Source: Holophagales bacterium UBA2201
Lineage (GTDB): Bacteria; Acidobacteriota; Thermoanaerobaculia; UBA2201
Assembly (NCBI GenBank): GCA_002327305.1
Contig: DCUZ01000016.1
Location: 7,873 to 71,872 of the forward strand
Reading direction: 5' to 3'
DNA length: 64,000 nt
The notes below the pieces were generated by a model. That model saw nothing but the letters and a program-made list of their open reading frames with translations, searched no databases and was not told where the DNA came from. Each line of letters starts with the position of its first letter. The first letter of the stretch is position 1. Made by a program: the position numbers and the translations under genes. Shown piece by piece: positions 1 through 62,453 of this stretch.

Positions 1-485
1 GCTTCCAGTTCGTGGGCGTGCTTTTGGATGGAAAAGATGGTCATCAATGCGCCCAGGCCGTAGCCCAAGGTGGTGGACATGTCTTCTTTCAACAGAATCT
101 TGTCGAGCCAGCGGACGGATCGCCGGTGCTTATAGGGGCAAGCCCCTTTGGGATGCTCTTCGTAATAGTAGGCGCCCACTTCGCCCACCAGGTAGCGGCC
201 CTCGCCCAGCGGCGCAAGAACGCGGTCGCCCTCCTGCATCTCGAATCCGAACCGGTAGACCTGTCCCGCCTGCCCCGCCACCGACGCCACACTCGCCCCT
301 TCCGCCTTCAGTTCCTTCTTTATGTCTTTAAGTATTATTTCTTCTTTTCTTAATTCATAATTCTTAATTTTTAATTTGGAGGTGAGGTCGGGTATCTGGT
401 TCCACCCGATGGCAATGAAGCCTTCTTTGCGTGCTTCTTCAATGTATTTGGAACCTTCGCCGAGGCGGATCAGATAATAACTCAC
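1..485 (-). CDS. hypothetical protein, partial (N-terminus in window, C-terminus beyond position 1)
   Basis: The minus strand is open from a GTG at 485 (preceded by GGAGGGG 4 nt upstream) to the window edge with no stop. Translation starts VSYYLIRLGEGSKYIEEARKEGFIAIGWNQIPDL, then a Lys/Glu-rich linker, then ...GEGRYLVGEVGAYYYEEHPKG. It is absent from the ORF track because its stop lies outside the window. Family not recognised. Confidence 0.4.
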   Translation of the reverse strand, partial: MSYYLIRLGEGSKYIEEARKEGFIAIGWNQIPDLTSKLKIKNYELRKEEIILKDIKKELKAEGASVASVAGQAGQVYRFGFEMQEGDRVLAPLGEGRYLVGEVGAYYYEEHPKGACPYKHRRSVRWLDKILLKEDMSTTLGYGLGALMTIFSIQKHAHELE

Positions 486-561
486 TATCCCCTCCAGATA
501 TTAATCATTGACATGTGACTGCCAAAGGACATTCTATTATATTTGTTCTCGGCATTCCCAT

Positions 562-2223: not shown

Positions 2224-2348
2224 TCTTATCCTCTTTTCACATAAAGAAAATACTGCTTCTGATATAAGACAAGCCGATTCTGTGCCCCTAACATTCTATG
2301 TAGCAGCAGACAAGATATTATTTAAGTGACAATTTTAAGACACTACGC

Positions 2349-10568: not shown

Positions 10569-10588
10569 CCGCCCACCCGTCCCCCCGG

Positions 10589-10696
10589 CGGGAAGGCGGG
10601 AAGGCGGGAAGGCCGGAAGGCCCCCCATCTGCCGACTGCCAACTGGAAACTGCCCACTGCCCACTGCCATCTGCCGACTGGAAACTGCCGACTGAA
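10589..10696. repeat. short tandem repeats: (GGGAAGGC)x4 followed by ~9 copies of the heptamer CTGCCNA
   Basis: Read directly in the pcm-apt intergenic region: gggaaggcgggaaggcgggaaggccggaaggcc, then ctgccga ctgccaa ctggaaa ctgccca ctgccca ctgccat ctgccga ctggaaa ctgccga. Confidence 0.75.
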
Positions 10697-15662: not shown

Positions 15663-15737
15663 CTACGGTCTACGGTCTACGGTCTACGGTCTACGGTCTA
15701 CGGTCTACGGTCTACGGTCTACGGTCTACGGTCTACT
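15663..15737. repeat. heptanucleotide tandem repeat (ACGGTCT)x~10
   Basis: ctacggtctacggtctacggtct... read directly in the gap between two convergent genes. Confidence 0.85.
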
Positions 15738-21455: not shown

Positions 21456-21621
21456 TCAGCGGTTCAGCGCCGGGAACGATGCCAGCGGGGGGGCGCCCCA
21501 GATGCGGACGGACGCGGGGATCCCGTTGACGACGCAGGTCCACGAACCGTCCGTGCCCAACCCCGACATCTCCGCCATCCACACCGCCCCCCAGCCGTCC
21601 CGCGACGGGGCCTCGATGCGG
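21456..21621 (-). pseudogene. displaced native 3' end (alternative C-terminus) of the secreted-protein gene now at 27580-28080
   Basis: Reading the minus strand through repeat copy A gives ...MAEMSGLGTDGSWTCVVNGIPASVRIWGAPPLASFPALNR*. This is homologous to the C-terminus of the 27580-28080 product (...DYTWACTVDGRHSSIRVWGTPPLSSFPALNQAK*). Confidence 0.55.
21549..21621. repeat. 73-bp direct repeat, copy A (att-like boundary)
   Basis: 72/73 nt identical to 27680-27752 (tccgtgccca[a/g]ccccgacatctccgccatccacaccgccccccagccgtcccgcgacggggcctcgatgcgga). Confidence 0.85.
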
Positions 21622-21693
21622 AGTGCCATCCGGTCCCGGAGCCGGTCGCCGGATGTCTGCCGTTTGGGGGAGCTTTCCTAACGTCGCTTCGGA

Positions 21694-24678
21694 GTGTACA
21701 ATAAGCGCATGGGCATTGAAACAATCAAAGGTCTCGTGGACCGGTTTGAAACCCATCGGGATTCCTATACCTCCGGCTCCTACAACGAAACCCAGCTCCG
21801 CCGCGAGTTCCTGGACCCCTTCTTCAAGGCCCTCGGTTGGGATGTCTTCAACGAAAAGGGCTACGACGAGGCCTACAAAGAGGTCATCCACGAGGATTCC
21901 CTCAAGATCGGCGAATCCACCAAGGCCCCCGACTACTGCTTCCGCATCGGCGGCGTGCGCAAGTTTTTCGTGGAGGCCAAGAAGCCCTCCGTCAACGTCA
22001 AAGAGGATGTCTCCCCCGCCTACCAATTGCGCCGCTATGCCTGGAACGCCGACCTCCCCCTTTCCATCCTCACCGATTTCGAGGAGTTCGCCGTCTACGA
22101 TTGCCGTGAAAAGCCGGCTCTGACCGACAAGGCCTCCAGGGCCCGCGTCCTCTACCTCCCCTTCCACGAGTACCCGGAGCGCTGGGAGGAACTGGCCGCG
22201 CTTTTCTCCCCCGAGGCCGTCCTCAAGGGCTCCTTCGACCGCTACGCCCGATCGGCCAAGGCCAAGCGGGGCACCGCCGGGGTGGACGACGCCTTCCTAG
22301 AGGACATCGAGCGGTGGCGGGAACTGCTGGCCAGGGGCTTCGCCCTGCGCAACCCGGCCCTCTCCACCCATACCCTCAACTTCGCCGTTCAGCGCACCAT
22401 TGACCGCATCATCTTCCTGCGCATCGCCGAGGACCGCGGCCTGGAGCCCTACGGCACGCTTCTGGGGCAAATCAACGGCGAAGGCGTCTATCCCCGCCTC
22501 GTCGAGCTCTTCCGCAAGGCCGACCAGAAATACAACTCCGGCCTCTTCCACTTCCAGAATGAGAAGGGCCAGCACGAACGGCCCGACGACCTCACCCCCC
22601 GCCTCCACCTCGACGACAAGCCGCTGAAGGCGATCATCCAAGGGCTCTACTACCCCGAGAGCCCCTACGAGTTCTCCGTCATGCCCGCCGACATCCTGGG
22701 GCAGGTCTATGAGCGGTTCCTGGGAAAAGTCATCCGCCTCACCGCCGGCCATCAGGCCAAGGTGGAGGAGAAGCCGGAGGTGAAAAAGGCCGGCGGCGTA
22801 TTTTATACTCCCACCTTCATCGTGGACTACATCGTCCGGCATACGGTGGGACGGCTCCTGGAGGGCAAGACCCCCAAACAGATTTCAAGCCTGCGCATCC
22901 TGGACCCCGCCTGCGGCTCCGGCTCCTTCCTTCTGGGAGCCTACCAGTGCCTTCTCGACTGGCACCGCGACTGGTACCTTGCCGACGGCGCCGCGATACA
23001 CCCCAAGGAGATTTACCGCGCCCACACCGGGCAGTGGCGCCTCACCACCCCGGAGCGCAAGCGCATCCTCCTCAACTCCATCCACGGCGTGGACCTGGAC
23101 CCGCAGGCTGTGGAGGTCACCAAGCTCTCCCTCCTGCTGAAAGTCCTGGAGGGGGAGACGGAGCAGACTCTCCAGCACCAGATGGACTTCATGCGCGCCC
23201 GCGCCCTGCCCGACTTGGGGCGTAACATCCAGTGGGGCAACTCCCTCATCGGGGGCGACTACACCCACGGCCGGCAGTTGGACTTCGTGCCGGAGGAGGA
23301 GCGGTACCGCGTCAACCCCTTTGATTGGGCCCGCCAGTTCTCCGCCGTCATGGAGGCGGGGGGCTTCGACGCCGTCATCGGCAATCCCCCTTATGTGCGG
23401 CAGGAGACCCTGGGCGACGACTTCAAAGCGTATGCCGGCACGCACTTCAAGACCTTCGCCGGCACCGCCGACCTCTATGTCTATTTCATCGAGCGGGGCA
23501 TCTCGCTCCTGAAGGATGGCGGGATCTTCTCCTACATCGTCGCCAACAAGTGGCTGAGGGCCGCCTATGGGAAGCCTCTCCGGCAGTGGCTCAAGGACAA
23601 GGCCGTCGAGGAGATCGTGGACTTCGGCGACCTCCCCGTCTTCCAGGGCGCCACCACCTACCCCTGCATCCTGCGCGTCGCCAAGAGCAAGGCCAAGAAG
23701 AGTTTCAGCGCCGCCAAAGTACCGGACTTGGAGTTCACCGATCTGGAGGAGAAGGTCAAGGACCTGCGATACACCGTAGAGAAGACGACCCTCTCTCCAG
23801 ACGGCTGGTCGTTGGCCGACGCCAAGGTTTCGGCCCTCCTGGGGAAGATCAAGGCCCAAGGAATCCCTCTGAAAGAGTATGTCAAGGGAAAGATCTATCG
23901 GGGCGTTCTGACCGGCTTCAACGAGGCCTTTGTTATTGACGAGGCGACAAAGAAACGGCTCATCCAAGAAGACCCCAAAAGCGCCGAACTCATCAAGCCC
24001 TTCCTCCAGGGGCGCGACATCAAGCGGTATCAGCCGCCCACCCCGACGCGCTATCTCATCTTTACGCGCCGGGGAGTGGACATCAAACGCTATCCCGCCA
24101 TCGAGCGGCATCTGCTCCAATATAAAGAACTTCTAATGCCGAAGCCGAAAAACTGGAAGGGGAAAGAGTGGAAGGGGCGCAAGCCGGGGGCGTATCAGTG
24201 GTACGAGATTCAAGACAGCACCGATTATTACTCGGAATTTGAGAAGCCTAAGATTCTCTGGCCTGAAATAGCAGGCGATGCACGCTTCACCTTTGACCCC
24301 GCAGGCTGCTATGCCAACAACAAAGTGTTTCTAATTCCCTCTGAGGATAAATACCTTCTTGGCTTGTTGAACTCTTCGTTGCTAAAGACCTTCATACACT
24401 CCGTATGCACTGATCTCCAGGGCAGTAGTTTCAACTTCAGTGCTGTCTTTGTGCAAAAGACGCCTATCGTTGTGCCTGATCTTAAGGACAAAACACGGGT
24501 GAAGGCCAAAGAAGAGATCCTCGCCCTGGTGGACCAGCTACTTAAGATGAATGCCGACCTGGCTACCTGCACAAGCAATCAGCAGCGGGTGCTATGCCAG
24601 CGATATATTCTTGCCCACGAGAAGCAGATAAATAATGCTGTCTGTTCAATATACCGAATCGATCATGATGATTGCTAG
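21694..24678 (+). CDS. Type IIG restriction-modification enzyme (PD-(D/E)XK nuclease + gamma-class N6-adenine MTase + TRD), intact
   Basis: 994 aa. N-terminal PDYCFRIGGVRKFFVEAKKP (PD..EAK), SAM motif LDPACGSGSFLLGAY and catalytic VIGNPPYVRQE. The size and order match MmeI-like Type IIG/IIL enzymes. An alternative start is at 21709. Confidence 0.8.
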   Translation: MYNKRMGIETIKGLVDRFETHRDSYTSGSYNETQLRREFLDPFFKALGWDVFNEKGYDEAYKEVIHEDSLKIGESTKAPDYCFRIGGVRKFFVEAKKPSVNVKEDVSPAYQLRRYAWNADLPLSILTDFEEFAVYDCREKPALTDKASRARVLYLPFHEYPERWEELAALFSPEAVLKGSFDRYARSAKAKRGTAGVDDAFLEDIERWRELLARGFALRNPALSTHTLNFAVQRTIDRIIFLRIAEDRGLEPYGTLLGQINGEGVYPRLVELFRKADQKYNSGLFHFQNEKGQHERPDDLTPRLHLDDKPLKAIIQGLYYPESPYEFSVMPADILGQVYERFLGKVIRLTAGHQAKVEEKPEVKKAGGVFYTPTFIVDYIVRHTVGRLLEGKTPKQISSLRILDPACGSGSFLLGAYQCLLDWHRDWYLADGAAIHPKEIYRAHTGQWRLTTPERKRILLNSIHGVDLDPQAVEVTKLSLLLKVLEGETEQTLQHQMDFMRARALPDLGRNIQWGNSLIGGDYTHGRQLDFVPEEERYRVNPFDWARQFSAVMEAGGFDAVIGNPPYVRQETLGDDFKAYAGTHFKTFAGTADLYVYFIERGISLLKDGGIFSYIVANKWLRAAYGKPLRQWLKDKAVEEIVDFGDLPVFQGATTYPCILRVAKSKAKKSFSAAKVPDLEFTDLEEKVKDLRYTVEKTTLSPDGWSLADAKVSALLGKIKAQGIPLKEYVKGKIYRGVLTGFNEAFVIDEATKKRLIQEDPKSAELIKPFLQGRDIKRYQPPTPTRYLIFTRRGVDIKRYPAIERHLLQYKELLMPKPKNWKGKEWKGRKPGAYQWYEIQDSTDYYSEFEKPKILWPEIAGDARFTFDPAGCYANNKVFLIPSEDKYLLGLLNSSLLKTFIHSVCTDLQGSSFNFSAVFVQKTPIVVPDLKDKTRVKAKEEILALVDQLLKMNADLATCTSNQQRVLCQRYILAHEKQINNAVCSIYRIDHDDC

Positions 24679-26002
24679 CGCCGCAAACCCAGGCGTCTTC
24701 AACATACGCAGCGAATTATCAGATAAAAGCATTAGAATTCTATCAAACCAAATTGATCAAGTATTTTCGAAGAAGGGATTGGCCTTTCCGAGAAGTGCAG
24801 AAGAATTGAAAAAGTATGCTTATAATCCTTACATTAAAATAGATGGCAATATTTTTCATTTAAGTGCAATCGGATCGCAAGCGCTTGAGCGCATATTGGC
24901 CATATTTCAAGGCATTAAACCGCTGAGCGATTTACTTAGCCCAAATGATTATTACCGGATCATCCTTGGCGAGATCGAGAATTGGATCAATCGCAAATTG
25001 GTACCAAGTCCTGATGTATTCATTGATTCGGTAGAAAAGCATATATTGACCTATATAGATTGGTATCAGTTTCTATGCAAAATAGATGGGTTAATCTTGC
25101 AAGGTGTTGATCAATTGCCAATAGGAGGAAAAATAATAAGTAAGTACACACCAGAAATTCTCGATAACATAATGCAAAAATCGGATGATTTTATAAAGAT
25201 CATCAATACTGAACATAATAATTCTATTGTTATTTCAGGGAAAGAAAGAGGATCGATTGATTCAGCTTCGAGAAAATTCTGCTTCAATGCAGAATTGTGC
25301 CTATCGCTGTTGCGATTGTATCACTGTATCGCAAGAGGAGGTGATATACTGCGCCCCAAAATTAGGTTAGTTAGCGAGTGTCATGGCGCTTATGGATCAG
25401 CTATTGTATTTGGATGGGATGAGAAAACAAAGAGCGAAACTTGGATAAGACATTTTAAGGAAGATTTAAGCCTTGTAATAGACAATGAAATGTTAACTTA
25501 CTTCAGAAAGCAATGTTATTGGGATCAGTTAGCGGGCCTTATCTTAAAAGAAGACAGAAGCGAAGTAGAGGAAGCGATAGTTAAATCACTTTATTGGTTT
25601 GGCGAAGCGCATAAGGAACGCACAATTGTTACAAAATGGATTCTATTGTGGACTTGCATTGAATGCTATTTTTCTATTGATGATGAGCGGATAACAGAAA
25701 ATAATGCAATGGGCGTTGCAACTTTCCTTAAATTTGGTGGATATTCATTTGACGAATATAATGATTATCGCAAATTAAAGAGCAAGATCAGGAAATATTA
25801 TGAACTTAGAAGTCTTGCTCTGCACAGAGCATCTTATCAACATATTGAGTCTGAAGCTCTCGAGACATTTGCTCAAATGGTTGCCTGGGTGATCATTATA
25901 ATGGTCTCATTGTCATTGAGAGGTTATAACAATTTAGTCCAGATAAAGAAAGAAGCAGAAAGATTAGATAGCCTGCACTATTCGGATCAGAAAAATGGAT
26001 AA
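24635..26002 (+). CDS. hypothetical protein (AT-rich; C-terminal Rx4H HEPN-like motif), candidate defence-associated partner of the Type IIG gene
   Basis: 455 aa. Its start overlaps the R-M gene stop (alternative ATGs at 24665/24668). The C-terminal helical region contains YELRSLALHRASYQH (Rx4H). No other recognisable motif. Confidence 0.5.
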   Translation: MLSVQYTESIMMIASAANPGVFNIRSELSDKSIRILSNQIDQVFSKKGLAFPRSAEELKKYAYNPYIKIDGNIFHLSAIGSQALERILAIFQGIKPLSDLLSPNDYYRIILGEIENWINRKLVPSPDVFIDSVEKHILTYIDWYQFLCKIDGLILQGVDQLPIGGKIISKYTPEILDNIMQKSDDFIKIINTEHNNSIVISGKERGSIDSASRKFCFNAELCLSLLRLYHCIARGGDILRPKIRLVSECHGAYGSAIVFGWDEKTKSETWIRHFKEDLSLVIDNEMLTYFRKQCYWDQLAGLILKEDRSEVEEAIVKSLYWFGEAHKERTIVTKWILLWTCIECYFSIDDERITENNAMGVATFLKFGGYSFDEYNDYRKLKSKIRKYYELRSLALHRASYQHIESEALETFAQMVAWVIIIMVSLSLRGYNNLVQIKKEAERLDSLHYSDQKNG

Positions 26003-26354
26003 AGCGCTTTACATTTCCCTGCTCGTTGCCGTTGCAACTCCCGTTGTAGCATTCGCCCTGCGGCTGGCCTGGAAGGCAATCCGGCTATGGCATGCCCGCC
26101 GTCTCTCAGTGGAGGAGAAGCATCTGCTCCACTATGCGGCCAAATCCCAAGGCATGATCCACCACATGGAGGCCGATCAAATCCCCGGCGGATGGGTCCG
26201 CGCCGGCGGGATGGATTTCGACACGGAGCCCCGCCGGGCGGGTCTTTACCTTGCGGCTCTCGAACGCCTGATCGCCCTGGGCTATGTGGAGTACAAGTCG
26301 GGAAACCTATTCACTTTGACCCATTCCGGCTGGAAAAAGGGGGAAAGGACATGA
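25995..26354 (+). CDS. small membrane-anchored hypothetical protein
   Basis: 119 aa with one N-terminal TM helix (LYISLLVAVATPVVAFAL). Its ATG overlaps the upstream stop by 8 nt. Confidence 0.4.
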   Translation: MDKALYISLLVAVATPVVAFALRLAWKAIRLWHARRLSVEEKHLLHYAAKSQGMIHHMEADQIPGGWVRAGGMDFDTEPRRAGLYLAALERLIALGYVEYKSGNLFTLTHSGWKKGERT

Positions 26355-26397
26355 TGGCCGCCCGTATCGCATTCTGGAAATCGCGGAGGATGTTCTG

Positions 26398-27408
26398 ATG
26401 GTCGTTCATGCATCCTATGTCTGCCCCCGTTGTCATGGAGGCATGGAGATCGGGCCAAGCGGACTGATCTGTCCGGCCTGCACAATCACTTATCCGGTGG
26501 CGGATGGTATCGCCGACTTCTCTGAAGGCCATTACTACGATCAGTTCGACCCCTCCTCCTCGCTCACCGTCGAACATCAGGCGGGGCTAAATCACGAGGT
26601 CGAGGGGTCCCGATGGCGCATCCAGGCCTATTATCTCCCCAAGATCGAAACGACTTTACGCAAATTTGCTCTGGAGCGCTCCAGGATACAGATCCTGGAT
26701 TGCGGCTGCGGCAACGGCTGGTCGGTGGACCTGCTAAACGACACGGGGCTCTTGACCTGGGGGGTTGACCTGTCCCAATTGCGCCGGTGGCAGTGGAGGG
26801 AGCGCAAGCACAAAGGCAACCTTGCGGTGGCCGACGCCCGCCGTCTTCCCTTCGAGGATGGCCGTTTTCATTTCATCCTCTGTTCCGGCGTCATTGAGCA
26901 CATCGGGGTCCAGGAGTACAAGCTGGGGGCCTATAGCGTGAAACCCCTGGAAAACCGCGACGCCATGCGAACAGCATTCCTTTCCGAACTCCTGCGGGTC
27001 CTCGCTCCCGGCGGCACGCTCTGGCTGGATTGTCCCAACGGGGCCTTCCCCATTGATTTCTGGCATGGCGATCGGGTGGGCCAGGCCCGCCGCCATGCGC
27101 TGAATGAGGGCTTCCTGGCCAAGACCGGCGAGATTCGGAGCTATCTATCGGCGATCAAGACGCCGGCTTCCTTGAAGCCGCGCAGCCCTCATCGCCTATT
27201 CCGCTTCCAGCAGGTGGGGCGGCATTGGTACGGTCGTGCGATCCGGCCTTTGATGGGTATATATTTCAACCTCATGCGTGTGTTTCCTTTCTCCATCTTG
27301 GCCGGCACGGGCCTCAATCCGTACTTGGTCCTGGAGATCAGCAAGGAGGCAGATCATGTGCATTCGAAGGAGCACTCTACGGCAATATTGCTTATCAAAC
27401 AACAGTAA
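26398..27408 (+). CDS. class I SAM-dependent methyltransferase with N-terminal Trm112-like zinc ribbon
   Basis: CPRCHGGM...CPAC zinc ribbon, then ILDCGCGNGWSVDLL (motif I) and ADARRLPFEDGRFHFILCSGVIEHI (Methyltransf_11-like). No DNA-MTase DPPY/NPPY motif. Confidence 0.7.
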   Translation: MVVHASYVCPRCHGGMEIGPSGLICPACTITYPVADGIADFSEGHYYDQFDPSSSLTVEHQAGLNHEVEGSRWRIQAYYLPKIETTLRKFALERSRIQILDCGCGNGWSVDLLNDTGLLTWGVDLSQLRRWQWRERKHKGNLAVADARRLPFEDGRFHFILCSGVIEHIGVQEYKLGAYSVKPLENRDAMRTAFLSELLRVLAPGGTLWLDCPNGAFPIDFWHGDRVGQARRHALNEGFLAKTGEIRSYLSAIKTPASLKPRSPHRLFRFQQVGRHWYGRAIRPLMGIYFNLMRVFPFSILAGTGLNPYLVLEISKEADHVHSKEHSTAILLIKQQ

Positions 27409-27579
27409 CACCGGCAAAACTCCGCTATGAACTTGTGCCTTCCAACGGCAACCATTATTATTTGATCACCGCTTATAGTGCCAATCAGGAAAGCAGCCCT
27501 GGAAATGGCACCAGCGGGCCCCGTCCTGTCTCGCAATGCACCTGCCCGCCATAAATACGGACGAGAAAAGCCCAGCTAT

Positions 27580-28080
27580 TTATTTTGCCTGATTCAATGC
27601 CGGAAATGAAGAAAGCGGCGGCGTGCCCCATACCCGGATTGAGCTATGCCTGCCATCAACGGTGCAAGCCCATGTATAATCCGTGCCCAGCCCCGACATC
27701 TCCGCCATCCACACCGCCCCCCAGCCGTCCCGCGACGGGGCCTCGATGCGGAACTCCAGGGGGTCCTTCAACGCGTGGCCGGGGACGCGGAGGAACCGGA
27801 CCTCGTCGGCCGGCAGGTCGCCGAGCTTCCCGCCGTTCAGGATGATCGCGCCGCCGGTCAGGGACCACGCCCGCAGGCGCATCTCCTGCCGCCCGGCACG
27901 GGCGAAGGCACGCACGAAAACGACGGTTTCCGGCTCCGCCGCCGGCAATTTCCCGTCCCGCCAGATCACTTGGCCTCCCGGTTCCGCGGCGCGGAGCTTC
28001 TCCGAGTGGAAGCGGTGGACGGATTGCCACAAAATACAAATGGCGAAAAGGGACAGGCCGGCAATCAATATCCGTTTCAT
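27580..28080 (-). CDS. secreted hypothetical protein (host gene carrying island-supplied 3' end)
   Basis: 166 aa with signal/TM MKRILIAGLSLFAICILW. Its last ~60 codons include repeat copy B and a lower-GC tail. Confidence 0.5.
   Translation of the reverse strand: MKRILIAGLSLFAICILWQSVHRFHSEKLRAAEPGGQVIWRDGKLPAAEPETVVFVRAFARAGRQEMRLRAWSLTGGAIILNGGKLGDLPADEVRFLRVPGHALKDPLEFRIEAPSRDGWGAVWMAEMSGLGTDYTWACTVDGRHSSIRVWGTPPLSSFPALNQAK
27680..27752. repeat. 73-bp direct repeat, copy B (att-like boundary, within coding sequence)
   Basis: See copy A. Here it encodes LEFRIEAPSRDGWGAVWMAEMSGLGT of the 27580-28080 product. Confidence 0.85.
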
Positions 28081-28085
28081 GGATA

Positions 28086-28470
28086 GTTTCGAGTTTCGAG
28101 TTTCGAGTTTCGAGTTGAGAAGCGGGAAACGCGGTTTCGAGTCTCGAGTTTAGAGTTTCGAGTTGTCAAACGGGAAACGCAGTTTCGAGTTTCGAGTTTC
28201 GAGTTTCGAGTTGAGAAGCGGGAAACGCGGTTTCGAAGTTCGAGTTCATAGTTTCGTGTTGAGAAGCAGGATGTAGAGAGAGTTGTGCTTTTAACTTTCA
28301 ACTCGCAACTCGCAACTTTGCTCTGGTTTTGTCTTTAATTCGGAACTCGAAACTCGAAACTCGCAACTTTGCTCTGGTTTTGTCTTTAATTCGAAACTCG
28401 CAACTCGCAACTCGCAACTTTGCTCTGGTTTTGTCTTTAATTCGAAACTCGCAACTCGCAACTCGCAACT
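28086..28470. repeat. composite tandem-repeat array: 4 units of ~48 bp built from (TTTCGAG)n + TTGAGAAGCGGGAAACGCGG, then 3-4 units of ~51 bp built from (AACTCGC/AACTCGA)n + AACTTTGCTCTGGTTTTGTCTTTAATTCG
   Basis: Read directly. It occupies the whole intergenic/promoter region between the ABC-2 permease stop and the start of the 27580-28080 gene. Confidence 0.85.
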
Positions 28471-28475
28471 GCATT

Positions 28476-29294
28476 TTAATACTGCCCCAACGACCCGTCC
28501 CGCTTGGCATTCCGGACGGCGGCGTTGAAGAGCCACAGGCTGAGGGGGACGAGGACGGCGGAGAAGGCGAGGAGGTAGAGATAGCTGCCGCCGAGGTCGG
28601 CCACCCCCTTCCCTTCGAGGATGGAACCCCGCAGGACGGCCAGGGCATGGGTGGTGGGGATGAGGTCGGAGAGGGTCTGCAGGGCCGGCGGCAGGATCTC
28701 CTTGGGGAAGAAGACGGTGCCGAAGAGGGCCGAGGCGGTGCCGAAGAAATAGGAGACCGGCTCGCCCCGCTTGAACAATAAAACCGAGGCGGCGGCAAGG
28801 TTGCCGATGGCACCGAAGGTGATCGAGCAAAGGAATAGCGGCAGAACGAAATTCATAACCTCGAGATCGGGCAGGGGGACGTCGAAAAGCAGGCGGGCCG
28901 CCAAGAGAAGAAGATAAAGACGCAGGATACCGGCGATAAAATCAGACACCATGCTCAGCGCCGGCATCTCGCAGGGCCATCGCAGCAAGTTCAGGGTGTA
29001 CTCCAGCGTGCCGTTCATCTGCTGTTCGCGGATACGGCTGGAGGAGCTGTACATGATGGTGGTGAGCATCCCCTGGAGGGCCAGCCCCAGGATGACATAA
29101 GGGAAGTAGCCTCCGGGCGAGGCGAAACCGCCCATTCCCTTGTCCATGAGGGTGGCGATGAAATACCAAAGAAACAGGGTGAAAAGCCAGGCTCCGGCCT
29201 GCAGAATGACATTCAACCGGTAGGAGAGGGCAAGGCGGATGTCCCGCTCAAGGAACAGGCCCATGCGACGGACGGTGTCCAGATGATTACTCAT
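28476..29294 (-). CDS. ABC-2 family transporter permease
   Basis: 6-TM permease pattern with a start ATG overlapping the ATPase stop (ATGA). The track ORF is trimmed to MSNHLDTV. Confidence 0.7.
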   Translation of the reverse strand: MSNHLDTVRRMGLFLERDIRLALSYRLNVILQAGAWLFTLFLWYFIATLMDKGMGGFASPGGYFPYVILGLALQGMLTTIMYSSSSRIREQQMNGTLEYTLNLLRWPCEMPALSMVSDFIAGILRLYLLLLAARLLFDVPLPDLEVMNFVLPLFLCSITFGAIGNLAAASVLLFKRGEPVSYFFGTASALFGTVFFPKEILPPALQTLSDLIPTTHALAVLRGSILEGKGVADLGGSYLYLLAFSAVLVPLSLWLFNAAVRNAKRDGSLGQY

Positions 29295-47866: not shown

Positions 47867-48233
47867 GCGGTCCTCCCGGGGATCATGGTTCCCCGATGAT
47901 ACCACGCCTGGAGGCGTGGATCTATTCGGTCGACCGCTCCGGCCCATCGGCGAGGAGATGCTTGTGGCCGCCTTCCCCGGTCTCCCGGGGGCTCTGCGCA
48001 AGCAGTGCCCCCGGGAGACCACTGGTCCCGACGCCGCTCCTCGTCTCGGGGGAGGGGGTATGGGGCTGGTTGCCCCCCGGGCCGCTCCGATCTTCACCGG
48101 GGCGGCTCCCAGGCCAGCCCCCACTGCGCTAATTATATTTCGCAAAGAAACGACCCTCCGTATCAATGCTATGCGAACTTATTGACCTGTCTTTTCACAA
48201 TGAAAATCTATTTTTCCACAGCTATATTGGCAT

Positions 48234-48911
48234 TTATAAATATTGCGGGAAGAATAAGCCTTCAGTGTCACCACTATGTGAACTAATCTCTTCTTCTTTT
48301 AGAAGACGGACATCACCGTATCTGCCAACAAATACCGTCTCTTTGAATATGGTTGGCATATATGCTTTAGGAATTGGCTTTATTACATATCGCGTTATTT
48401 CATAACCGTAACCAACGGGAACTACCCTGGCCTCTTGGAAGCGAAGCCACTTCCATTTGCTGGTGGGGAGGCACACACCAATGCAGCCGCTATGCCCTGT
48501 TCGAGGATAGATCTCTAATTTCTGCTCTTCAAACAAATGTACTGTATTAAAAGAAGAAAAGAATCTGAAATAAACTAAAGCGTCAGATGCACTCCATAAA
48601 AATATGCAGCCATGAAGGTCATTGGGACCTTTCACTTCATTTTCCAGCCCGTTCTTTTTAAGTACTACTTTTTCAGTGTACTCGGGGGGAATGCTGACGC
48701 CGGGAACGAACTCCACGTGACAGTCTTCTTTGAGCATCGTCAGTGTTATGCATGTGCTATCAGAAGTATAATCCAGACATCGATAGCTGGAGCCATTAAT
48801 GGAATGCCACCCTGCTCTGGAGGCGCAGCCGATTGTTGTAACGGCGACAAGCAGAAGTAATGATTGACTCAGCACGAGTTTATAGCTCTCTATGAGGTTC
48901 TTTGGCATCAT
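48234..48911 (-). CDS. putative lipoprotein, paralog 1 (possible orphan Rhs immunity protein)
   Basis: Signal peptide + lipobox-like TIGC. ~40% identical over ~150 aa to the 49068-49763 product. In a low-GC region. Confidence 0.45.
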   Translation of the reverse strand: MMPKNLIESYKLVLSQSLLLLVAVTTIGCASRAGWHSINGSSYRCLDYTSDSTCITLTMLKEDCHVEFVPGVSIPPEYTEKVVLKKNGLENEVKGPNDLHGCIFLWSASDALVYFRFFSSFNTVHLFEEQKLEIYPRTGHSGCIGVCLPTSKWKWLRFQEARVVPVGYGYEITRYVIKPIPKAYMPTIFKETVFVGRYGDVRLLKEEEISSHSGDTEGLFFPQYL

Positions 48912-49067
48912 GATTATTCCCCTGCCTTTCTACAATGGGATTCTTTCTTCTCTTGCTGAACTTTAACGGTTGCGTTGATGTATTTTATACATTTTAGACT
49001 ACCTATTCATATTTGCTATTTTGGGTTGCACCGCACCGGCACTCTTGATCATCGTGCCTGCCGGTCC

Positions 49068-49763
49068 CTAGATGAATCCAGCAAAGCCCACCCTTTCCGT
49101 ATATTTCGGGTCATCAGTAATCTTTTCTTCGCTTATTAAATCTACTCCACCATCCTTGCGTACGAGCACTATTTCTTTATATATCGTAGGCAAATATGCT
49201 TTTGGGAACGGTTTTATAATGAACCTTGTTATCTCAAAGCCATCATTCTTTGGAGTCACGACTGGATCGTGCAAATGAAGATTGTTCCAGCTCCTATTCG
49301 TCGTGCACACTAAGATGCATCCTCGATGGCCTTTAGGTGCAAATATTTCCTTCTTCTCGTCTTCAAAAAGGTGCGCGGTGTTTTCACTTGAAAAGAAGCG
49401 CAAATACTCTATTGCTTCCTCTGGCGTTTCAATATTTGCGCATCCTTTGAGATCGTTTGGGCCATTAACTCTTCTCATTTCATCTCCACGAATCAAAACA
49501 ACCCTTTCGCTTATCTGAGGGGGGATTGTATCTCCCTCAATAAATTGCAGCGAACACTCAGCATAAATCATTGGGAGATTAATGCACCTGCAATAAGGAG
49601 GGTATTTTCCCTTAAGATACCTGTCGCCGAGAAAACAGTTCAGTTTTTCATGATTAGCGCACGCCAATTCAAGCGATGCGAAGGACAGGAATATCAGAGC
49701 AAGAAAATACCTACGTGCGCGAGGGCAAATCATATTATTTACTTGCATCCGCGAAGTAATCAT
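49068..49763 (-). CDS. putative lipoprotein, paralog 2 (possible orphan Rhs immunity protein)
   Basis: Signal peptide + LELAC. Shared blocks RFFSS.NT.HLFE..K.EI..GH.GCI.VC and EITR.IIKP.PKAY.PTI.KE.V.V. Confidence 0.45.
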   Translation of the reverse strand: MITSRMQVNNMICPRARRYFLALIFLSFASLELACANHEKLNCFLGDRYLKGKYPPYCRCINLPMIYAECSLQFIEGDTIPPQISERVVLIRGDEMRRVNGPNDLKGCANIETPEEAIEYLRFFSSENTAHLFEDEKKEIFAPKGHRGCILVCTTNRSWNNLHLHDPVVTPKNDGFEITRFIIKPFPKAYLPTIYKEIVLVRKDGGVDLISEEKITDDPKYTERVGFAGFI

Positions 49764-49816
49764 ATATTATTCTCCTTCTATTTGTCAGGGCATTTTCCAC
49801 AAAAATCCTCTTTTGA

Positions 49817-50182
49817 TTATTTTTGACTCTCAAGATTCTTGTCCAAGAAATAATTGCAACTTCCCGAGCCAAATCTGGACCTAAGTCTGGCCTTCTCCAG
49901 ACAGGGAACCGAAACGCCATAGGCATAGCATTCAGTGCAGGGTGTGTCGCTTCCCTGCAACCCTGGGTTGCTATTGGGAGATCTGCCTTTGCACGCATTG
50001 GGCCTCTTCTGCGTGAACCATTCAATGTGCGCCACCTCATGTTTTTCAAAGCAATCCGGCGCACAATCCGGGCGCTCAAGCCATCTCCATTTGAATCCCC
50101 CGCAACCGTCGCACACTGTTATGGCGAAATCTGTTAAGACAGCGTGAGAATTGTTCTTTTCAAACACAGAATATTCAAGCAT
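49817..50182 (-). CDS. Cys-rich small hypothetical protein (possible orphan toxin module remnant)
   Basis: 121 aa with 11 Cys (VCDGCGG, CAPDC, CTECY), in the low-GC tract between lipoprotein genes. Confidence 0.3.
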   Translation of the reverse strand: MLEYSVFEKNNSHAVLTDFAITVCDGCGGFKWRWLERPDCAPDCFEKHEVAHIEWFTQKRPNACKGRSPNSNPGLQGSDTPCTECYAYGVSVPCLEKARLRSRFGSGSCNYFLDKNLESQK

Positions 50183-50256
50183 GCCTTCCAGGTCAATAAA
50201 ACCCGACGGATTGTTATGAGCATAATATTATACTGCGGCAAAGGTGTGAAATACTT

Positions 50257-50787
50257 TTATTTCCATCCTCCTCCTCGGAACATAATGCTGACTGCATGCA
50301 ACTTAAAAAATTCTTCTCCCGCCAATATTGTGATCTTTAGCGTATAACTATCCTTGCTTGCCGGGATAAAATAGGTGCCGGGATCATCGTTGAGTGACTC
50401 TGATTTCCTGCGATAGCCGAATGCATCTGCACAGTCAACGCTACAAGTCCAGACCCAATTCGCTAAATCGTCTTTTTGGGTGAAAATATTATTGCCATCC
50501 GATGTATTCAATGCAACTTCTACCCTGGCGGCTGTTCGTTTGGCTTCGGATACTGCACCAGCAGCATCAAGCGAAGCAACATGAAAGCCCATAACGAAGC
50601 GCGTTGAAGGCAGCCGCCCAATCATGTATTCCTTTGTCGGAACGCTATTAGGGCCTAGATCCAAAATATATTGATCAATTGCTTCTGCTGCTCCCCGATC
50701 AGCAAAAGTTCCATCTCCAATATAGCGCCATTCTTTGTTGCAAGAAACACTCAAAAACATGCAGAACAATAATAACTTTGCCTTCAT
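50257..50787 (-). CDS. putative lipoprotein, candidate immunity protein for the adjacent Rhs toxin
   Basis: Signal peptide + lipobox LSVSC, 13 nt downstream of the rhs stop on the same strand. Confidence 0.4.
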   Translation of the reverse strand: MKAKLLLFCMFLSVSCNKEWRYIGDGTFADRGAAEAIDQYILDLGPNSVPTKEYMIGRLPSTRFVMGFHVASLDAAGAVSEAKRTAARVEVALNTSDGNNIFTQKDDLANWVWTCSVDCADAFGYRRKSESLNDDPGTYFIPASKDSYTLKITILAGEEFFKLHAVSIMFRGGGWK

Positions 50788-50799
50788 GGTTTCTTCCTC

Positions 50800-55701: not shown

Positions 55702-56164
55702 AACTTCCCTCCTTTTCAGTCTATCATAGATAGACGCTGCGCCGGGGCTGAGCCCTTGAGGATCACCCCGGACGATTCACGCCCATGGGCTTCTGCCCTT
55801 GGGCCAAAGTCGGTTCCATCAAGTAGGTACAAAAACAGCGGTTCTTGCTTACCTTGACTTTGAGATGGGCTCTAAGCAAGGAGTCGCCGAAAGAGGGGGG
55901 GGGTGACTAAGCGGCTTGGGATTTCCATTCCATCATCTGCTAAAAGAGCGCTTGAAAAGGACCCTTTAGACATGCCTTTGGCGTCCCTCAGGGGTTCCTG
56001 GGCCTCGGCAAGGGGTGTCGCATGCCAACACACTACACCCTGATAGCTATATTTGCCAAGTATGGCCTATTGAAGATTCTATATTTACAGCATTATTGCT
56101 TTGGTAGCCAAGCAAATTTTCCGTTTATTAATTAATCGCCATAGCATATAAAAGCTCCTGAGCC

Positions 56165-58077: not shown

Positions 58078-58094
58078 GATCCCTCCTCGGCGGC

Positions 58095-58320
58095 AAAGGA
58101 AGAAGTAAGAATTAAGAAGTATGAAAAAATGAAACGAAGGCTTAATCCTACTCTGTACGTCTCTTCCTTCATAATTCTTACTTCTGCCTTCTGCCTTCTC
58201 ATTCGTGCTCCTCGACTGGAAAGGATGAATTAAAAATTAAGAAGTATGAATAAACAAGACAGAACGCCGCCTCCTTCTTAATTCTTACTTCTTCCTTCTG
58301 CCTTTTCATTGCTGCTCCTC
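58095..58320. repeat. tandem ~110-bp duplication of the actC 3' end plus AT-rich palindromic motif (TTCATAMTTCTTAATT)
   Basis: ...gagcacgaatgagaaggcagaaggcagaagtaagaattatgaag... and ...gagcagcaatgaaaaggcagaaggaagaagtaagaattaagaag... are direct repeats. The motif gaattaaaaattaagaagtatgaataa also matches 351-376 (24/26, opposite strand). Confidence 0.6.
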
Positions 58321-59610: not shown

Positions 59611-62453
59611 GGTTCCCCTCCACCAGTTTCGAGTTTCGAGTTTCGAGTTTCGAGTTTGCGTGGTCGGAACTCTGAGCTCCGAACTCCGAACTCCGAACTC
59701 CGAACTGTTTTCAAGTAGTACACCGCCGGCCTCGTCCCGAGCGATTCGAGGACCCGGTAGGCCCGGGGGGAGGCGGCCTGCTTCGAAACCGCCGATGCGG
59801 GGTCGAGGAGATTGCCGAAGGTGATGGCGCCGGTTGGGCAGGTCTGGGCGCAGGCGGTGGTGAGGTCGCCGTCGCGCACCTTTTGCCCTTTATCCTTCGC
59901 CTGGTCCTTGGCGCCGACGATGCGCTGGATGCAGAAGGTGCACTTCTCCATCACCCCCGCGGGACGGCGGGAGAGGTCTGGGTTGGTCATCTTCGGCAGG
60001 GGTTCCGGCAGGGGTTCGTCCAGCCAGTTGAACCGGCGCACCTTGTAGGGGCAGTTGTTGGCGCAGTAGCGGGTGCCGACGCAGCGGTTGTATACCTGCG
60101 CGTTGAGCCCCTCGGGATTGTGGTAGGTGGCCAGGACCGGGCACACCGCCTCGCAGGGGGCGTGGTCGCAGTGCTGGCAGAGCATGGGGAGGAATTCAAG
60201 GCGGCCGTCGCCGCCGAAATAGGGCTCCAGCCGGATCCACGCCATCTCGCGCCCCTTGAGGTGCTCGTCGAGGCCGGTGAGGCGGATGTTGTTCTCCAGG
60301 TAGCAGGCCGCCACGCAGGAGGAACAGCCGGTGCACTTGTCCAGGTCGATCGCCATCCCCCAGCGGTAGTCCTTGTGTTCGTGCTCGGGGTAGAGGGTGG
60401 CCTGGGTATGATTCGGCTTGTCGATTGGATCGCCCCGCCATTCCGCGCGCATGCCATCTTGCGCGCAAAATATTATCAATTCCCTTTTTTCCTGAAGGAT
60501 GCCCCGGCCCGTCGCGGTCATGCCGCCCGACAGGATGGGAAGGCGGACCTTCTCCCCCTTGGCCCTGATGGATTTCAGCGGGAAGATGGCGTCGGGTTCG
60601 GCTGCGGCAAACCTTGACAGGGGGAGATTCTCTCCCATGAGGAAGGGGCGCTGGATCATAAAGACCCCTTCGGCGAGGCCCATCTGGACCTTGACGGGAA
60701 GATCGAGCGAAACGCCGTCAATGTCCGCTGTGACGACATCCTTGTCCGCCACTCCCAGTTTGCGGGCATCCTCCGTGGAGACGGAGAGCCACCGGCCGTA
60801 GGTGATGGTGGAAAGGGGGTCGGGGATCTCGTGGAGGAGCGGCAGGGCCGCCGACCGGCCGTCGCCGGTCCGCACGGAGGGGGTGATCACGGCGACGGGG
60901 GTCTTGGCAGTAGGAGCAAACAAGATCTTGGGGGGAGATTCAAGCCTAATCTCCAGAGATTCCTCAACCTGTTGTTCAAAGCAAGCAAAGCCTTTATTCA
61001 ATGCAGTTGGAGAGATCCTCCATCTATTGCTGATCTCTTTCTGCATATCGTACTGCTCAACTATGAAGTCAAGCAATACATCACCTAAGGCGCGGCTGTC
61101 GTGAATTGGTGCAATTGCAGGGGCGTGAACGTTCGAAAGGCCTGTCCTGGGCAATTGATCTCCCCATGATTCCAGCGGAAGCGATAACGGCAGGACAATC
61201 GTGCAGGCTCGTATCGTCGGCGTGAGAGTGTCGCCAATTCCCACCACAAGAGAGGCGCGGCCGGTGGCATTGCGAAGTTCAGGGATATGGGCGTGGGGGT
61301 CGGCCCCGGCGGCGATGAAAATCCCGCCGCTACTGGCTTTGCGAGCCTCTGCCCAGGCCAGGAGTTCGGAATTCCCGCCGCCGTTGGGCCGCTTTATGAA
61401 GTGGCCGAAGTCCACCGTGCAATCGGTCATCCCCAGGGCAAACTGGTTGAGCGCCGTCATCATCGCTGCCGCCTCGCCTCCCGGCCCCGCCGTGCAGACG
61501 CCGCCGGCGATGAGGAGGGGTGCCTGCGCGGAGCCCAGCGCGCCGGCCAGCCGGTCGAGGGAAGCGGCGTCCATCCCCGTCTCGAAAAGCGCCTGCTCGC
61601 GGCTGACGAACGGCACGGCCGCCAGGACCGTCGGGGGCAGAGGTTTCCTCGCGGGCAGGGCCCGGATTAGGTGAGCGAGGAGGAACGCCTCGCTGCCGGG
61701 GCGGACCGTGATACGAAGGTCGGCGTTGGACCCGGTGAGGGAGAAGTGGGGCTCCAAGTGGAGCCACTCGAAGCCGCCACGCGTGCGGTTCTCCGCGACC
61801 TTCCGGGCGTACTCCACCGGGCTAACGAAGGTCTCCAGGATATCGGCCCCCAGAGTGACCAACAGGTCGGCCTTCTCCATGGCGTAGGAAGGAACGACGG
61901 GGCGACCGAAGAGTTTGTCATTGGCCTTGGCGATGGCAGAAGGAAAAAGAGGATCAAAGATGATATGTTCGATTCCGAACCTATCACAGAATGCCACCAT
62001 CAGCGTAGCTAACGCTCCGGTCGCTGTGTCGGTCACCAACAGGTGCGGCCCCTTCTCCTTGAGCGCGTTGCCGATGGTTTCGAGGGCGGTGTCCCAGGTG
62101 ACGGGCTGGAAGACCCCATCCCTCTGTTGGACGAGGGGTTCCTTGATCCGCTCGGGATTGTAGAGCCGCGAGAGCGAGGCCTGGCCGCGGATGCACAGCG
62201 CCCCGCGGTTGATCGGATGCTCGGGATTCCCCTCCAGCTTCACCGGCCACCCCTCGCGCACCCGGGCCAGGACGCCGCACCCGGCGGGGCATTCGGTGCA
62301 GATGGTCGGCACCCACTTTGCCTCGCCCGGCAGGACGCCGTCGTCCGGCGGTACGAGGGCCGGGATCAGTTTTTCCGGCGGCTTGCCCTGGCAGGCCACC
62401 GCCGCTGTCCCTCCGGCCAACCCCAATATGCGCAAGAACTGTCGTCTATTCAT
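59607..62453 (-). CDS. molybdopterin-oxidoreductase-like + 4Fe-4S ferredoxin fusion subunit (ActB-like), Tat signal
   Basis: Tat motif NRRQFLRILGLAGG, then a MopB-type domain (CTECPAGCG). The C-terminal 4Fe-4S region has CTGCSSCVAAC, CQHCDHAPC, CPYKV, CTFCIQRI. The start is trimmed to MNRRQFL. The final ~30 codons are encoded by heptamer repeats. Confidence 0.8.
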   Translation of the reverse strand: MNRRQFLRILGLAGGTAAVACQGKPPEKLIPALVPPDDGVLPGEAKWVPTICTECPAGCGVLARVREGWPVKLEGNPEHPINRGALCIRGQASLSRLYNPERIKEPLVQQRDGVFQPVTWDTALETIGNALKEKGPHLLVTDTATGALATLMVAFCDRFGIEHIIFDPLFPSAIAKANDKLFGRPVVPSYAMEKADLLVTLGADILETFVSPVEYARKVAENRTRGGFEWLHLEPHFSLTGSNADLRITVRPGSEAFLLAHLIRALPARKPLPPTVLAAVPFVSREQALFETGMDAASLDRLAGALGSAQAPLLIAGGVCTAGPGGEAAAMMTALNQFALGMTDCTVDFGHFIKRPNGGGNSELLAWAEARKASSGGIFIAAGADPHAHIPELRNATGRASLVVGIGDTLTPTIRACTIVLPLSLPLESWGDQLPRTGLSNVHAPAIAPIHDSRALGDVLLDFIVEQYDMQKEISNRWRISPTALNKGFACFEQQVEESLEIRLESPPKILFAPTAKTPVAVITPSVRTGDGRSAALPLLHEIPDPLSTITYGRWLSVSTEDARKLGVADKDVVTADIDGVSLDLPVKVQMGLAEGVFMIQRPFLMGENLPLSRFAAAEPDAIFPLKSIRAKGEKVRLPILSGGMTATGRGILQEKRELIIFCAQDGMRAEWRGDPIDKPNHTQATLYPEHEHKDYRWGMAIDLDKCTGCSSCVAACYLENNIRLTGLDEHLKGREMAWIRLEPYFGGDGRLEFLPMLCQHCDHAPCEAVCPVLATYHNPEGLNAQVYNRCVGTRYCANNCPYKVRRFNWLDEPLPEPLPKMTNPDLSRRPAGVMEKCTFCIQRIVGAKDQAKDKGQKVRDGDLTTACAQTCPTGAITFGNLLDPASAVSKQAASPRAYRVLESLGTRPAVYYLKTVRSSEFGVRSSEFRPRKLETRNSKLETGGGEP
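59626..59707. repeat. heptanucleotide tandem repeats (GTTTCGA)x4 then (CCGAACT)x5, inside the 3' end of actB
   Basis: cagtttcgagtttcgagtttcgagtttcgagtttgcg...ctccgaactccgaactccgaactccgaactg. Same heptamer as in the 28086-28470 array. Confidence 0.8.

Follow-up and report, generated by a model that had tools for sequence, protein, structure and literature searches.

Heptamer arrays between a permease gene and a secreted-protein gene

The 64,000-nt stretch of Holophagales bacterium UBA2201 DNA analysed here (contig DCUZ01000016.1; the window) contains, at positions 28081-28475, a 395-bp spacer that lies between a transporter gene and a small secreted-protein gene and is built from repeats of seven nucleotides. 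Both flanking genes are on the minus strand. An ATPase gene precedes the ABC-2 permease gene, whose TAA stop codon (28478-28476) stands immediately 5' of the repeats on the mRNA strand, and the exact permease protein is present in 15 contigs. In the direction of the mRNA, the junction is made up of the following features:

28476..29294, minus strand: ABC-2 type transporter permease gene (Pfam PF01061), 272 aa as called in public assemblies (gene calls in L001/L129)
28472..28474, minus strand: ATG one base after the permease stop (TAA-A-ATG), a conserved stop-A-ATG
28299..28470, minus strand: 5' arm of the mRNA, 3.4 x 51 nt, each unit with four GTTGCGA/GTTTCGA-type heptamers and a 23-nt core, ATTAAAGACAAAACCAGAGCAAA, the core being exact three times
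28262..28298, minus strand: hairpin apex, a single-copy centre that holds GTTAAAAGCACA (counterpart GTTAAAAGCAAA in lineage L143 and GTAAAAGCGCA in lineage L239)
28085..28271, minus strand: 3' arm of the mRNA, 3.9 x 48 nt, each unit with a 20-nt core (CGCGTTTCCCGCTTCTCAAC type) and four AACTCGA heptamers
27580..28080, minus strand: gene for a 166-aa protein with an N-terminal signal or anchor sequence and no Pfam family

Two opposed heptamer arrays (28085-28470) account for 98% of the spacer. Tandem Repeats Finder (TRF) resolved the left array (28086-28271) into 3.9 copies of a 48-bp period with 86% matches, or alternatively into 1.8 copies of a 96-bp period with 93% matches, and the right array (28299-28470) into 3.4 copies of a 51-bp period with 95% matches and a score of 323. 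The unit of either array consists of four heptamers (28 nt) and a core, which is 20 nt long in the 48-bp unit and 23 nt long in the 51-bp unit. A 29-nt core, AACTTTGCTCTGGTTTTGTCTTTAATTCG, is present in three exact copies and a 20-nt core, TTGAGAAGCGGGAAACGCGG, in two, with 0 expected for each; the remaining two 48-bp units have diverged, one carrying TTGTCAAACGGGAAACGCAG and the fourth being degenerate. Within the window, the cores are confined to this array, and the heptamer tract alone recurs, at 59626. Dimers of the type (GTTTCGA)2, with up to two mismatches allowed, were matched 20 times in the array compared with 0.14 matches expected for the whole window, with those of the left half on the plus strand and those of the right half on the minus strand, so that the two halves are mutually inverted. 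GTTTCGA agrees with the reverse complement of AACTCGC (rotated, GTTGCGA) at six of seven positions. The mRNA strand thus reads stop-A-AUG, then 3.4 units of four GUUGCGA-type heptamers and a 23-nt core, a centre of about 40 nt, 3.9 units of a 20-nt core and four AACUCGA heptamers, and finally 4 nt that separate the end of the 3' arm from the AUG at 28080. In short, the spacer is a quasi-palindromic satellite built from heptamer simple-sequence repeats (SSRs).

The first-pass annotation of this DNA had described a composite array of about 390 bp, with four units of about 48 bp and three to four of about 51 bp, whose two halves have heptamer cores that are near reverse complements and which stands directly upstream of the ATG at 28080. 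The present results bear out the array, its inverted halves and the position of the start codon. The count of the 48-bp units has to be amended to two perfect, one diverged and one degenerate, and the 51-bp units number three plus one partial copy. The same annotation rightly held that the array is not CRISPR-like: the "spacers" between the heptamer blocks are identical copies and the halves are inverted. Two independent metagenome assemblies of the Joint Genome Institute (JGI; L001 and L002) contain exactly the same 395-bp spacer, which is therefore not an assembly artefact.

The annotation had also placed the array in a promoter region, and this part was not supported. The gene order lpxD-fabZ-lpxA-GFO/IDH-PNP_UDP-ABC ATPase-permease-spacer-163..166-aa gene was kept in every relative recovered, and the genes on either side of the spacer are co-directional in this string across five lineages. 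Judged by this gene order, the tract is an intercistronic spacer, for which "promoter region" is too simple a name. A scan of 28081-28475 found no sigma-70-like promoter in the tract, and no intrinsic terminator was found within it on either strand. No Rfam family matched the window at the gathering threshold, or 27950-28600 at E<=1.

The same junction in related lineages

Using the permease protein as a query, we found four further lineages (75-79% identity), which together with the window make up the five lineages compared here. In all of these relatives the permease gene is followed by an orthologue of the 166-aa gene (163-165 aa), 68-75% identical to the window protein and with a mean column identity of 81%. 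The relatives carry the following spacers:

L141 (also L140 and L142), 126 bp: (GGTTCCT)3.6, loop, (AACTCGG)3.7
L143 (also L144 and L145), 225 bp: five-heptamer 5' arm (AGTCTAA/AGTTTCG), loop, three 42-bp units of four ACYCGAG heptamers and ACTATATTTTCRYA
L147, 162 bp: design as in L143, with one unit
L239 (also L240), 126 bp: (GTTCCAA)4, loop, (TGGAACC)4

A hairpin fold was predicted in all five lineages. The heptamers of the arms differ from lineage to lineage (GTTGCGA/AACTCGA, GGTTCCT/AACTCGG, AGTCTCG/GACTCGA and GTTCCAA/TGGAACC), yet the complementarity of the arms is kept, and all copies within an array share one lineage-specific variant, a pattern of concerted evolution. The mean duplex energy of arm pairs from the same lineage is -35.5 kcal/mol, compared with -22.5 kcal/mol for pairs across lineages. 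The first-pass annotation had spoken of modules resembling protein-binding sites; with heptamers that are wholly different among lineages and arms that remain complementary, a base-paired structure fits better than a fixed DNA-binding motif. In the 9-11-kb loci of the relatives, the arrays at this junction are the sole period-7 repeats.

Other parts of the spacer are conserved as sequence. The stop-A-ATG is present in all five lineages, and two loop motifs, AAAAGC[AG]CA on the 5' side and CTTCTYC on the 3' side, are retained in spacers that otherwise cannot be aligned. The spacers of L143 and L147 are identical at 142 of 162 positions (88%), including 26 of 30 in the leader and 39 of 41 in the loop (87-95%), whereas their flanking genes, which have diverged as much as those of any other pair, share 73-76% amino acid identity and 57-68% identity at third codon positions. 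This similarity indicates either constraint at the nucleotide level or recent transfer. We are confident that the heptamer hairpin is an old resident of the permease|166-aa junction.

Predicted folding of the spacer

The minus-strand (sense) RNA of the spacer was predicted to fold with -132.8 kcal/mol (z score -6.2) and the plus-strand (antisense) RNA with -174.6 kcal/mol (z score -12); the DNA folds of the two strands reach -87.5 and -84.8 kcal/mol. The whole spacer was predicted to form a single long, imperfect hairpin with a perfect 20-bp helix in it, and the folding of both strands thus agrees with the long imperfect palindrome of repeated modules proposed in the first pass. The plus-strand fold contains 23 G.U pairs and the minus-strand fold 2. 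We considered an antisense RNA function and rejected it: the strand asymmetry of folding is reversed at the spacer between ActC and ActD, two genes of alternative complex III (ACIII) elsewhere in the window, it tracks G/U-richness, and there is no consistent functional strand.

Translation signals and open frames

In the window, L143 and L147, no Shine-Dalgarno (SD) sequence stands before the start codon of the 166-aa gene; L141 has a weak and distant GGA before the start, and the AAGGGG of L239 is over-distant. GGAGG or AAGGAG is present before ActC, ActD and the gene at 10711. Because it has no good SD sequence, the gene downstream of the spacer should depend on the spacer for its expression. 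In the window, two chained open reading frames (ORFs) lead from the conserved ATG to the start of the 166-aa gene:

28474..28298, minus strand: ORF1, 58 codons, traverses the whole 51-bp array; its TGA stop overlaps a TTG in the central segment (TTGA)
28301..28077, minus strand: ORF2, 74 codons from a TTG start; its TGA stop overlaps the ATG of the 166-aa gene (ATGA)

ORF2 would be a hypothetical translated "relay" ORF. In L141, L143 and L239 the frame from the conserved ATG is open to the next start, which it meets in an ATGA overlap, and in L147 it is open until 2 nt before the next start; the other five frames of L143 and L147 carry 2-5 stops. The four relatives all have a spacer whose length is divisible by 3 (0 mod 3), the spacer of the window (395 bp) is 2 mod 3, and the unit lengths of 42, 48 and 51 are all multiples of 3. 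These frames suggest, but do not prove, that translation is relayed across the inserts at the permease|166-aa and ACIII junctions. Among all heptamer arrays collected, 53 of 56 are free of stops on at least one strand compared with 47.1 expected, a marginal enrichment. Coding potential of the window array was rejected, as no frame is open across the array.

Copy number and variation

Within each lineage, the spacers of independent assemblies are identical: the window equals L001 and L002, L143 equals L144 and L145, L140 equals L141 and L142, and L239 equals L240, although assemblies cannot reveal minority length classes. The sole exception is a 197-bp variant, L003, whose sequence agrees with that of the window at 99.83% over 6.6 kb. 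Exactly 102 bp and 96 bp are missing from its spacer, which amounts to two units per half, and both deletions fall on the longest identical stretches. Short-read contigs routinely break 33 nt into the array, where all Logan contigs end, so that L003 is possibly an assembly collapse. An exact 23-mer from the array centre had 0 matches in metagenomes, and a protein-guided metagenome scan yielded just a second copy of the L239 type. Of the earlier suggestion of a slippage-prone phase-variation tract, the slippage part is consistent with a unit number that has evolved (126, 162, 225 and 395 bp, and the 197-bp variant), and the phase-variation part finds no support in the identical spacers of independent assemblies. 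By these comparisons, the tract is evolutionarily dynamic, without sign of rapid phase variation.

A candidate RNA hairpin and its alternatives

Our preferred reading, to which we assign a probability of about 0.5, is that the spacer forms a co-transcribed RNA hairpin within a polycistronic transcript and sets the expression of the SD-less downstream gene. Unequal slippage or exchange of adjacent heptamer tracts would have enlarged an old junction hairpin in the window lineage by duplicating modules of one core and four heptamers on both arms. The tract would be co-transcribed with the transporter genes and would act in the RNA, co-transcription and folding both being deduced from the sequence. 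A long double-stranded hairpin between the permease stop and a start codon without an SD sequence could then set the amount of the downstream protein, possibly through RNase III-type processing, protection of mRNA ends or control of ribosome access, and ribosomes may relay across the hairpin via the short open frames. Arm length would serve as a slowly evolving rheostat and not as a rapid on/off switch.

It is possible, if on the unlikely side, that the element is instead a functionless by-product, with microsatellites arising by slippage, inversions by template switching and higher-order units by unequal exchange, all of them tolerated and self-renewing and affecting expression only incidentally. 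An excess of heptamer SSRs in the intergenic DNA of prokaryotes is general and has been on record since 2007 (Rehm 2015, PMC4692102, citing Mrazek 2007). The window itself holds several unrelated heptamers, control heptamers are as common as GTTTCGA or commoner in viral contigs, and the arms have turned over completely between lineages while evolving in concert within arrays. Several further results count against a selected hairpin. At this junction, a more distant relative (53% identical permease) has a gap of only 54 bp; of the orthologous ACIII junctions, that between ActB and ActC has no array in L139, and in L137 ActC and ActD overlap directly with no insert. The gap in the distant relative and the missing ActB/ActC array mean that the element is dispensable. 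In a permutation test of arm pairing, the true assignment ranked just 2 of 24, two lineages sharing GGTTCC-type arms, and co-variation of the arms could arise without selection through template switching or gene conversion between inverted repeats. The antisense strand is better folded than the sense strand in all five lineages, which is not expected of a sense-strand RNA element; we read this asymmetry as an effect of composition, since the G/U-rich strand always pairs better and the ActC|ActD site shows the reverse. The bridging frame of the window, finally, is split into two ORFs, needs a restart at TTG and has no stop-free advantage over other frames. Against a by-product speak four observations. 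A hairpin has been kept at this very junction in five lineages, the flanking genes of which are saturated at synonymous sites. The leader and loop, which lie outside the repeats, are 87-95% identical between L143 and L147, compared with 57-68% at third codon positions in the neighbouring genes. The stop-A-ATG and the loop motifs are conserved, and the downstream gene has no good SD sequence (three lineages have none, and in the other two it is weak or lies too far away).

Three other explanations fare less well. That the tract works at the DNA level, with iteron-like sites for a transcription factor or nucleoid protein or with the promoter of the 166-aa gene, was the first option of the first-pass annotation and would suit its place directly upstream of the start codon and its regular modules, in which three heptamers make 21 bp or about two helical turns. 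We consider this improbable: the tract lacks a sigma-70-like -35/-10 pair, the heptamers and cores differ completely among orthologues with complementarity kept, where a conserved binder would need a conserved site, and similar arrays lie within an ORF tail and between translationally coupled ACIII genes, where a promoter is not expected. The negative promoter scan is itself weak evidence, because it looked for sigma-70-like signals and the consensus of a deep-branching lineage may differ. A contingency locus, in which rapid slippage within the population switches or grades the secreted protein in the manner of hmw phase variation, has a precedent in the heptamer SSR of the hmw 5' untranslated region (UTR) hairpin of Haemophilus influenzae (PMC12721329). 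Unit number does vary by lineage, with one 42-bp unit in L147, three in L143, none of higher order in L141 and L239 and 3.4 + 3.9 units in the window, and L003 is two units shorter per half with flanks that are 99.8% identical. This account is quite improbable all the same, given that independent assemblies of one lineage from different samples have identical spacers, that L003 could be an assembly collapse in an array at which short-read assemblies break, and that these are environmental sequences with no hint of host-driven antigenic selection. The sample code MLSBCLC presumably refers to a hydrocarbon or tailings community. Very improbable, in our judgement, is that one or two real small repeat proteins, with a sequence that matters, are made from the spacer. 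The ATG conserved after the upstream stop and the L143/L147 frame, open where the other frames carry 2-5 stops, speak for such proteins, but the peptides are unrelated between lineages beyond what the heptamers impose, no source calls a gene in the spacer, and the frame is broken in the window. In addition, the comparison of L143 with L147 shows equal conservation at synonymous and non-synonymous sites, which points to constraint at the nucleotide level.

Other heptamer arrays in the window

A scan of the window for tandem repeats with periods of 4-12 and at least 3 copies returned 11 period-7 arrays, compared with 0.15 in composition-matched shuffles; other periods were near chance. The arrays at 347, 10625, 15663, 28085-28470, 58096-58304 and 59625-59706 are all at gene junctions, and at least 7 different heptamers are represented. 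With a 7-nt period, at least 3 copies, positions outside conserved coding sequence and several heptamers, they belong to the class of intergenic heptameric SSRs typified by the short tandemly repeated repetitive (STRR) sequences. Apart from the permease|166-aa spacer, the main arrays are as follows:

59611..59715, minus strand: hairpin pair between ActB and ActC of ACIII, (GTTCGGA)x5, a 20-nt loop, (AACTCGA)x4.7, GGAGG and ATG
58078..58305, minus strand: ActC-ActD spacer, two tandem hairpin modules of about 106 bp, with AGAAGTA/AGAATTA purine-rich and TACTTCT/TAATTCT pyrimidine-rich heptamers and GGAGG
10587..10694, plus strand: octamer and heptamer array, (GGCGGGAA)x4.4 followed by degenerate (CCNACTG)x10
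15663..15736, no strand assigned: perfect (CTACGGT)x10.6 with 100% matches, between two convergent genes and without an inverted partner

At the ActB-ActC junction, the (AGTTTCG)n tract is found again, at 59625-59657, with (GAACTCC)n at 59667-59706 as its partner. The ActB ORF runs through its arrays (59607-59730, minus strand) and has a predicted length of 977 aa, where relatives have 921-936 aa; the repeats encode its last ~35 residues (…VRSSEFGVRSSEF…KLETRNSKLET…), and its stop overlaps the ActC ATG (ATGA). In L137, this junction carries (GTTCAGA)4 and (CTCAACG)3.6. The ActC-ActD spacer was predicted to fold with a z score of -6.2, and two ATGA-chained ORFs (36 and 42 aa), which JGI annotates as genes, bridge its modules. 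Both of these ORFs have a K/R/E-rich N terminus, a hydrophobic C terminus and their own GGAGG, the protein being encoded by the two hairpin arms; a similar 37-aa ORF is found in L139 and none in L137. The array at 10587..10694 lies directly upstream of the SD sequence and ATG (10711) of a co-directional gene and showed no hairpin potential (z score +1.8). An AT-rich array, (TTCTTAA)x4.3, is located at 347-376, just ahead of a GGAGG.

A wider statement would be that heptamer-array hairpins are a general intercistronic module of the lineage, possibly of many phyla, which colonises junctions of translationally coupled genes, is kept "translatable" and acts as an evolvable rheostat of translational coupling made from a microsatellite; we advance this tentatively and think it unlikely. 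The heptamers are stop-free, the units come in multiples of 3, an AUG stands one base past the stop and a UGA overlaps the next AUG or UUG. On this view, ribosomes would relay through the hairpin and melt it to reach the SD-less start, and arm length and pairing would set the efficiency of coupling. Three of the four operon-internal arrays of the window (permease|166-aa gene, ActB|ActC and ActC|ActD) fit this coupling pattern.

Heptamer arrays in other genomes

An exact scan for (GTTTCGA)3 with one genome per species returned more than 120 loci in many phyla. The 847 kb of sequence at those loci contain 49 other perfect heptamer arrays, against at most 15 arrays for any other period. In viral contigs, three control heptamers of the same composition were found at 5, 19 and 58 loci and GTTTCGA at 7. 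As the controls are overall as frequent or more so, GTTTCGA is not special and the period-7 excess is general, and we rejected the idea of a special cross-phylum GTTTCGA family. The commonest of the four heptamers tested in viral contigs was the control (GTTGTCA)3, at 58 loci (L180-L237), whose reverse complement contains CAACTGA, one mismatch from the TAACTGA of Beggiatoaceae and cyanobacteria.

Among 114 (GTTTCGA)n arrays of at least 3 copies (L004-L123), 38 have a reverse-complement partner array within 200 nt, compared with 2-3 in reverse-only and complement-only controls. The longest (GTTTCGA)n array, in L091, has 43 copies. In a Chloroflexota metagenome-assembled genome (L042 1270-1909; DASRCF010000010.1), a run of GTTTCGG/GTTTCAG/GTTTCGA is followed in inverted orientation by three units of about 178 bp, each with (AACTCGA)x3, which shows the same growth pattern in an unrelated phylum. 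We also rejected the idea that, in other phyla, (AACTCGA)n precedes genes on a preferred strand, the bias being weak (44 vs 27) and based on crude gene calls. A literature search for the heptamer string returned nothing relevant.

Relation to known repeat systems

To our knowledge, hmw of H. influenzae is the only heptamer-repeat case with a worked-out mechanism. In the hmw1A 5' UTR, RNase III cleaves a hairpin that has ten AUCUUUC repeats as one of its arms, and the HMW1A level is inverse to repeat number (Rapun-Araiz et al. 2025, PMC12721329). The (ATCTTTC)n arrays of hmw1A/hmw2A resemble the spacer described here in that heptamers are arrayed between upstream signals and the start of a gene for a secreted or surface protein and take part in a long imperfect RNA hairpin, which for our spacer is a predicted one; repeat number alters output in hmw and would do so here. 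The hmw hairpin is the closest mechanistic analogue. In hmw, however, only one arm is an SSR and the other is G-rich and unique, whereas here both arms are heptamer arrays organized in 48- and 51-bp units. The hmw hairpin belongs to a monocistronic 5' UTR with a mapped promoter and varies within populations; ours is intercistronic, and such variation was not seen in assemblies. RNase III cleavage is documented for hmw, and the hairpin here is a predicted one.

In enterobacteria, repetitive extragenic palindromic (REP) units, inverted and with short motifs between them, make up the bacterial interspersed mosaic elements (BIMEs). These lie in transcribed DNA between cistrons or in 3' regions, and their stem-loops stabilise upstream mRNA and adjust the relative expression of genes in an operon. 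REP units are palindromes of about 35-40 nt, spread by REP-associated tyrosine transposases (RAYTs) in hundreds of near-identical copies. The arrays here are microsatellites generated locally, with cores that occur nowhere else in the window, and do not belong to REP/BIME; no RAYT was seen, and none was searched for.

The consensus heptamers of STRR are CCCCAGT, TTGGTCA and CAACAGT. None of them is present as an array in the window, and the nearest named ActB relatives, at most 50% identical, are not cyanobacteria, so that the window arrays are not STRR in the strict sense. The lineage is uncultured and deep-branching, and its ActB has 76% identical relatives in two metagenome bins and then none above 50%. 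Like the arrays described here, the STRR of heterocystous cyanobacteria (Mazel 1990, as cited in PMC4692102) are period-7 arrays in intergenic or intra-operon positions with several heptamers per genome and no agreed function. They differ from the present arrays, which are set in a high-GC genome and have inverted pairs, higher-order units and positional orthologues. In Beggiatoaceae, TAACTGA repeats lie upstream of SD-less start codons (MacGregor 2015, PMC4679880), the heptamers ending a few nt before the start as they do here, and a post-transcriptional or translational role was proposed for them. There, one dominant heptamer occurs in 2-6 direct copies with essentially no inverted partners; here many heptamers occur and pairing is conserved. 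The GGGAATC arrays of Xanthomonas (Rehm et al. 2015, PMC4692102) are likewise intergenic, lie between the same genes in related species, vary in length and sequence and include some inverted pairs, but they are G-rich and form G-quadruplexes, whereas the heptamers here are not G-tracts.

The class of intergenic heptameric SSRs and the principle of an SSR hairpin in a leader are thus already known. What is new is a composite architecture with two arms and higher-order units, which five lineages conserve in position while the arms co-vary, together with the frequent inverted pairing among heptamer arrays and the possible arrangement of relay ORFs. The five lineages form a comparative series with one junction and one design, differing heptamers, 0 to 4 higher-order units and co-varying arms, and this series separates what is conserved (pairing, loop, stop-A-AUG and frame) from what is free (sequence and copy number). 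If the hairpin or relay function is real, it would explain why stop-free period-7 repeats build up at operon junctions and would provide a simple, portable device for tuning expression within operons. If it is not, the locus would still be a clean example of microsatellites that grow into higher-order quasi-palindromes and break short-read assemblies.

Genomic setting

The first-pass annotation had called the secreted-protein gene island-interrupted, which does not describe it well. A ~6-kb island (~21623-27679), partly of low GC content, is integrated in the 3' end of the 166-aa gene between the copies of a 73-bp direct repeat (21550-21622 = 27680-27752, 98.6%). As the island supplies a replacement C terminus, the 166-aa ORF is intact, and the gene is restored rather than interrupted. 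The original 3' end (...RIEAPSRDGWGAVWMAEMSGLGTDGSWTC...ALNR, then stop) has been displaced and survives at 21622-21456. The island encodes a 994-aa type IIG restriction-modification enzyme similar to MmeI and a 336-aa S-adenosylmethionine (SAM) methyltransferase, and it has two more ORFs, of 455 and 119 aa; a different MmeI-family gene is found nearby in L141. Positions 1-4000, 24000-26000 and 48000-51000 of the window have a GC content of 36-48% against a background of 62-73%, and these segments are likely to be additional DNA of foreign or island origin. A large RHS/YD-repeat toxin gene (1633 aa) and an XRE-type helix-turn-helix (HTH) gene lie a short way downstream of the ACIII operon, at ~55000-56000 (L124 5868-6263).

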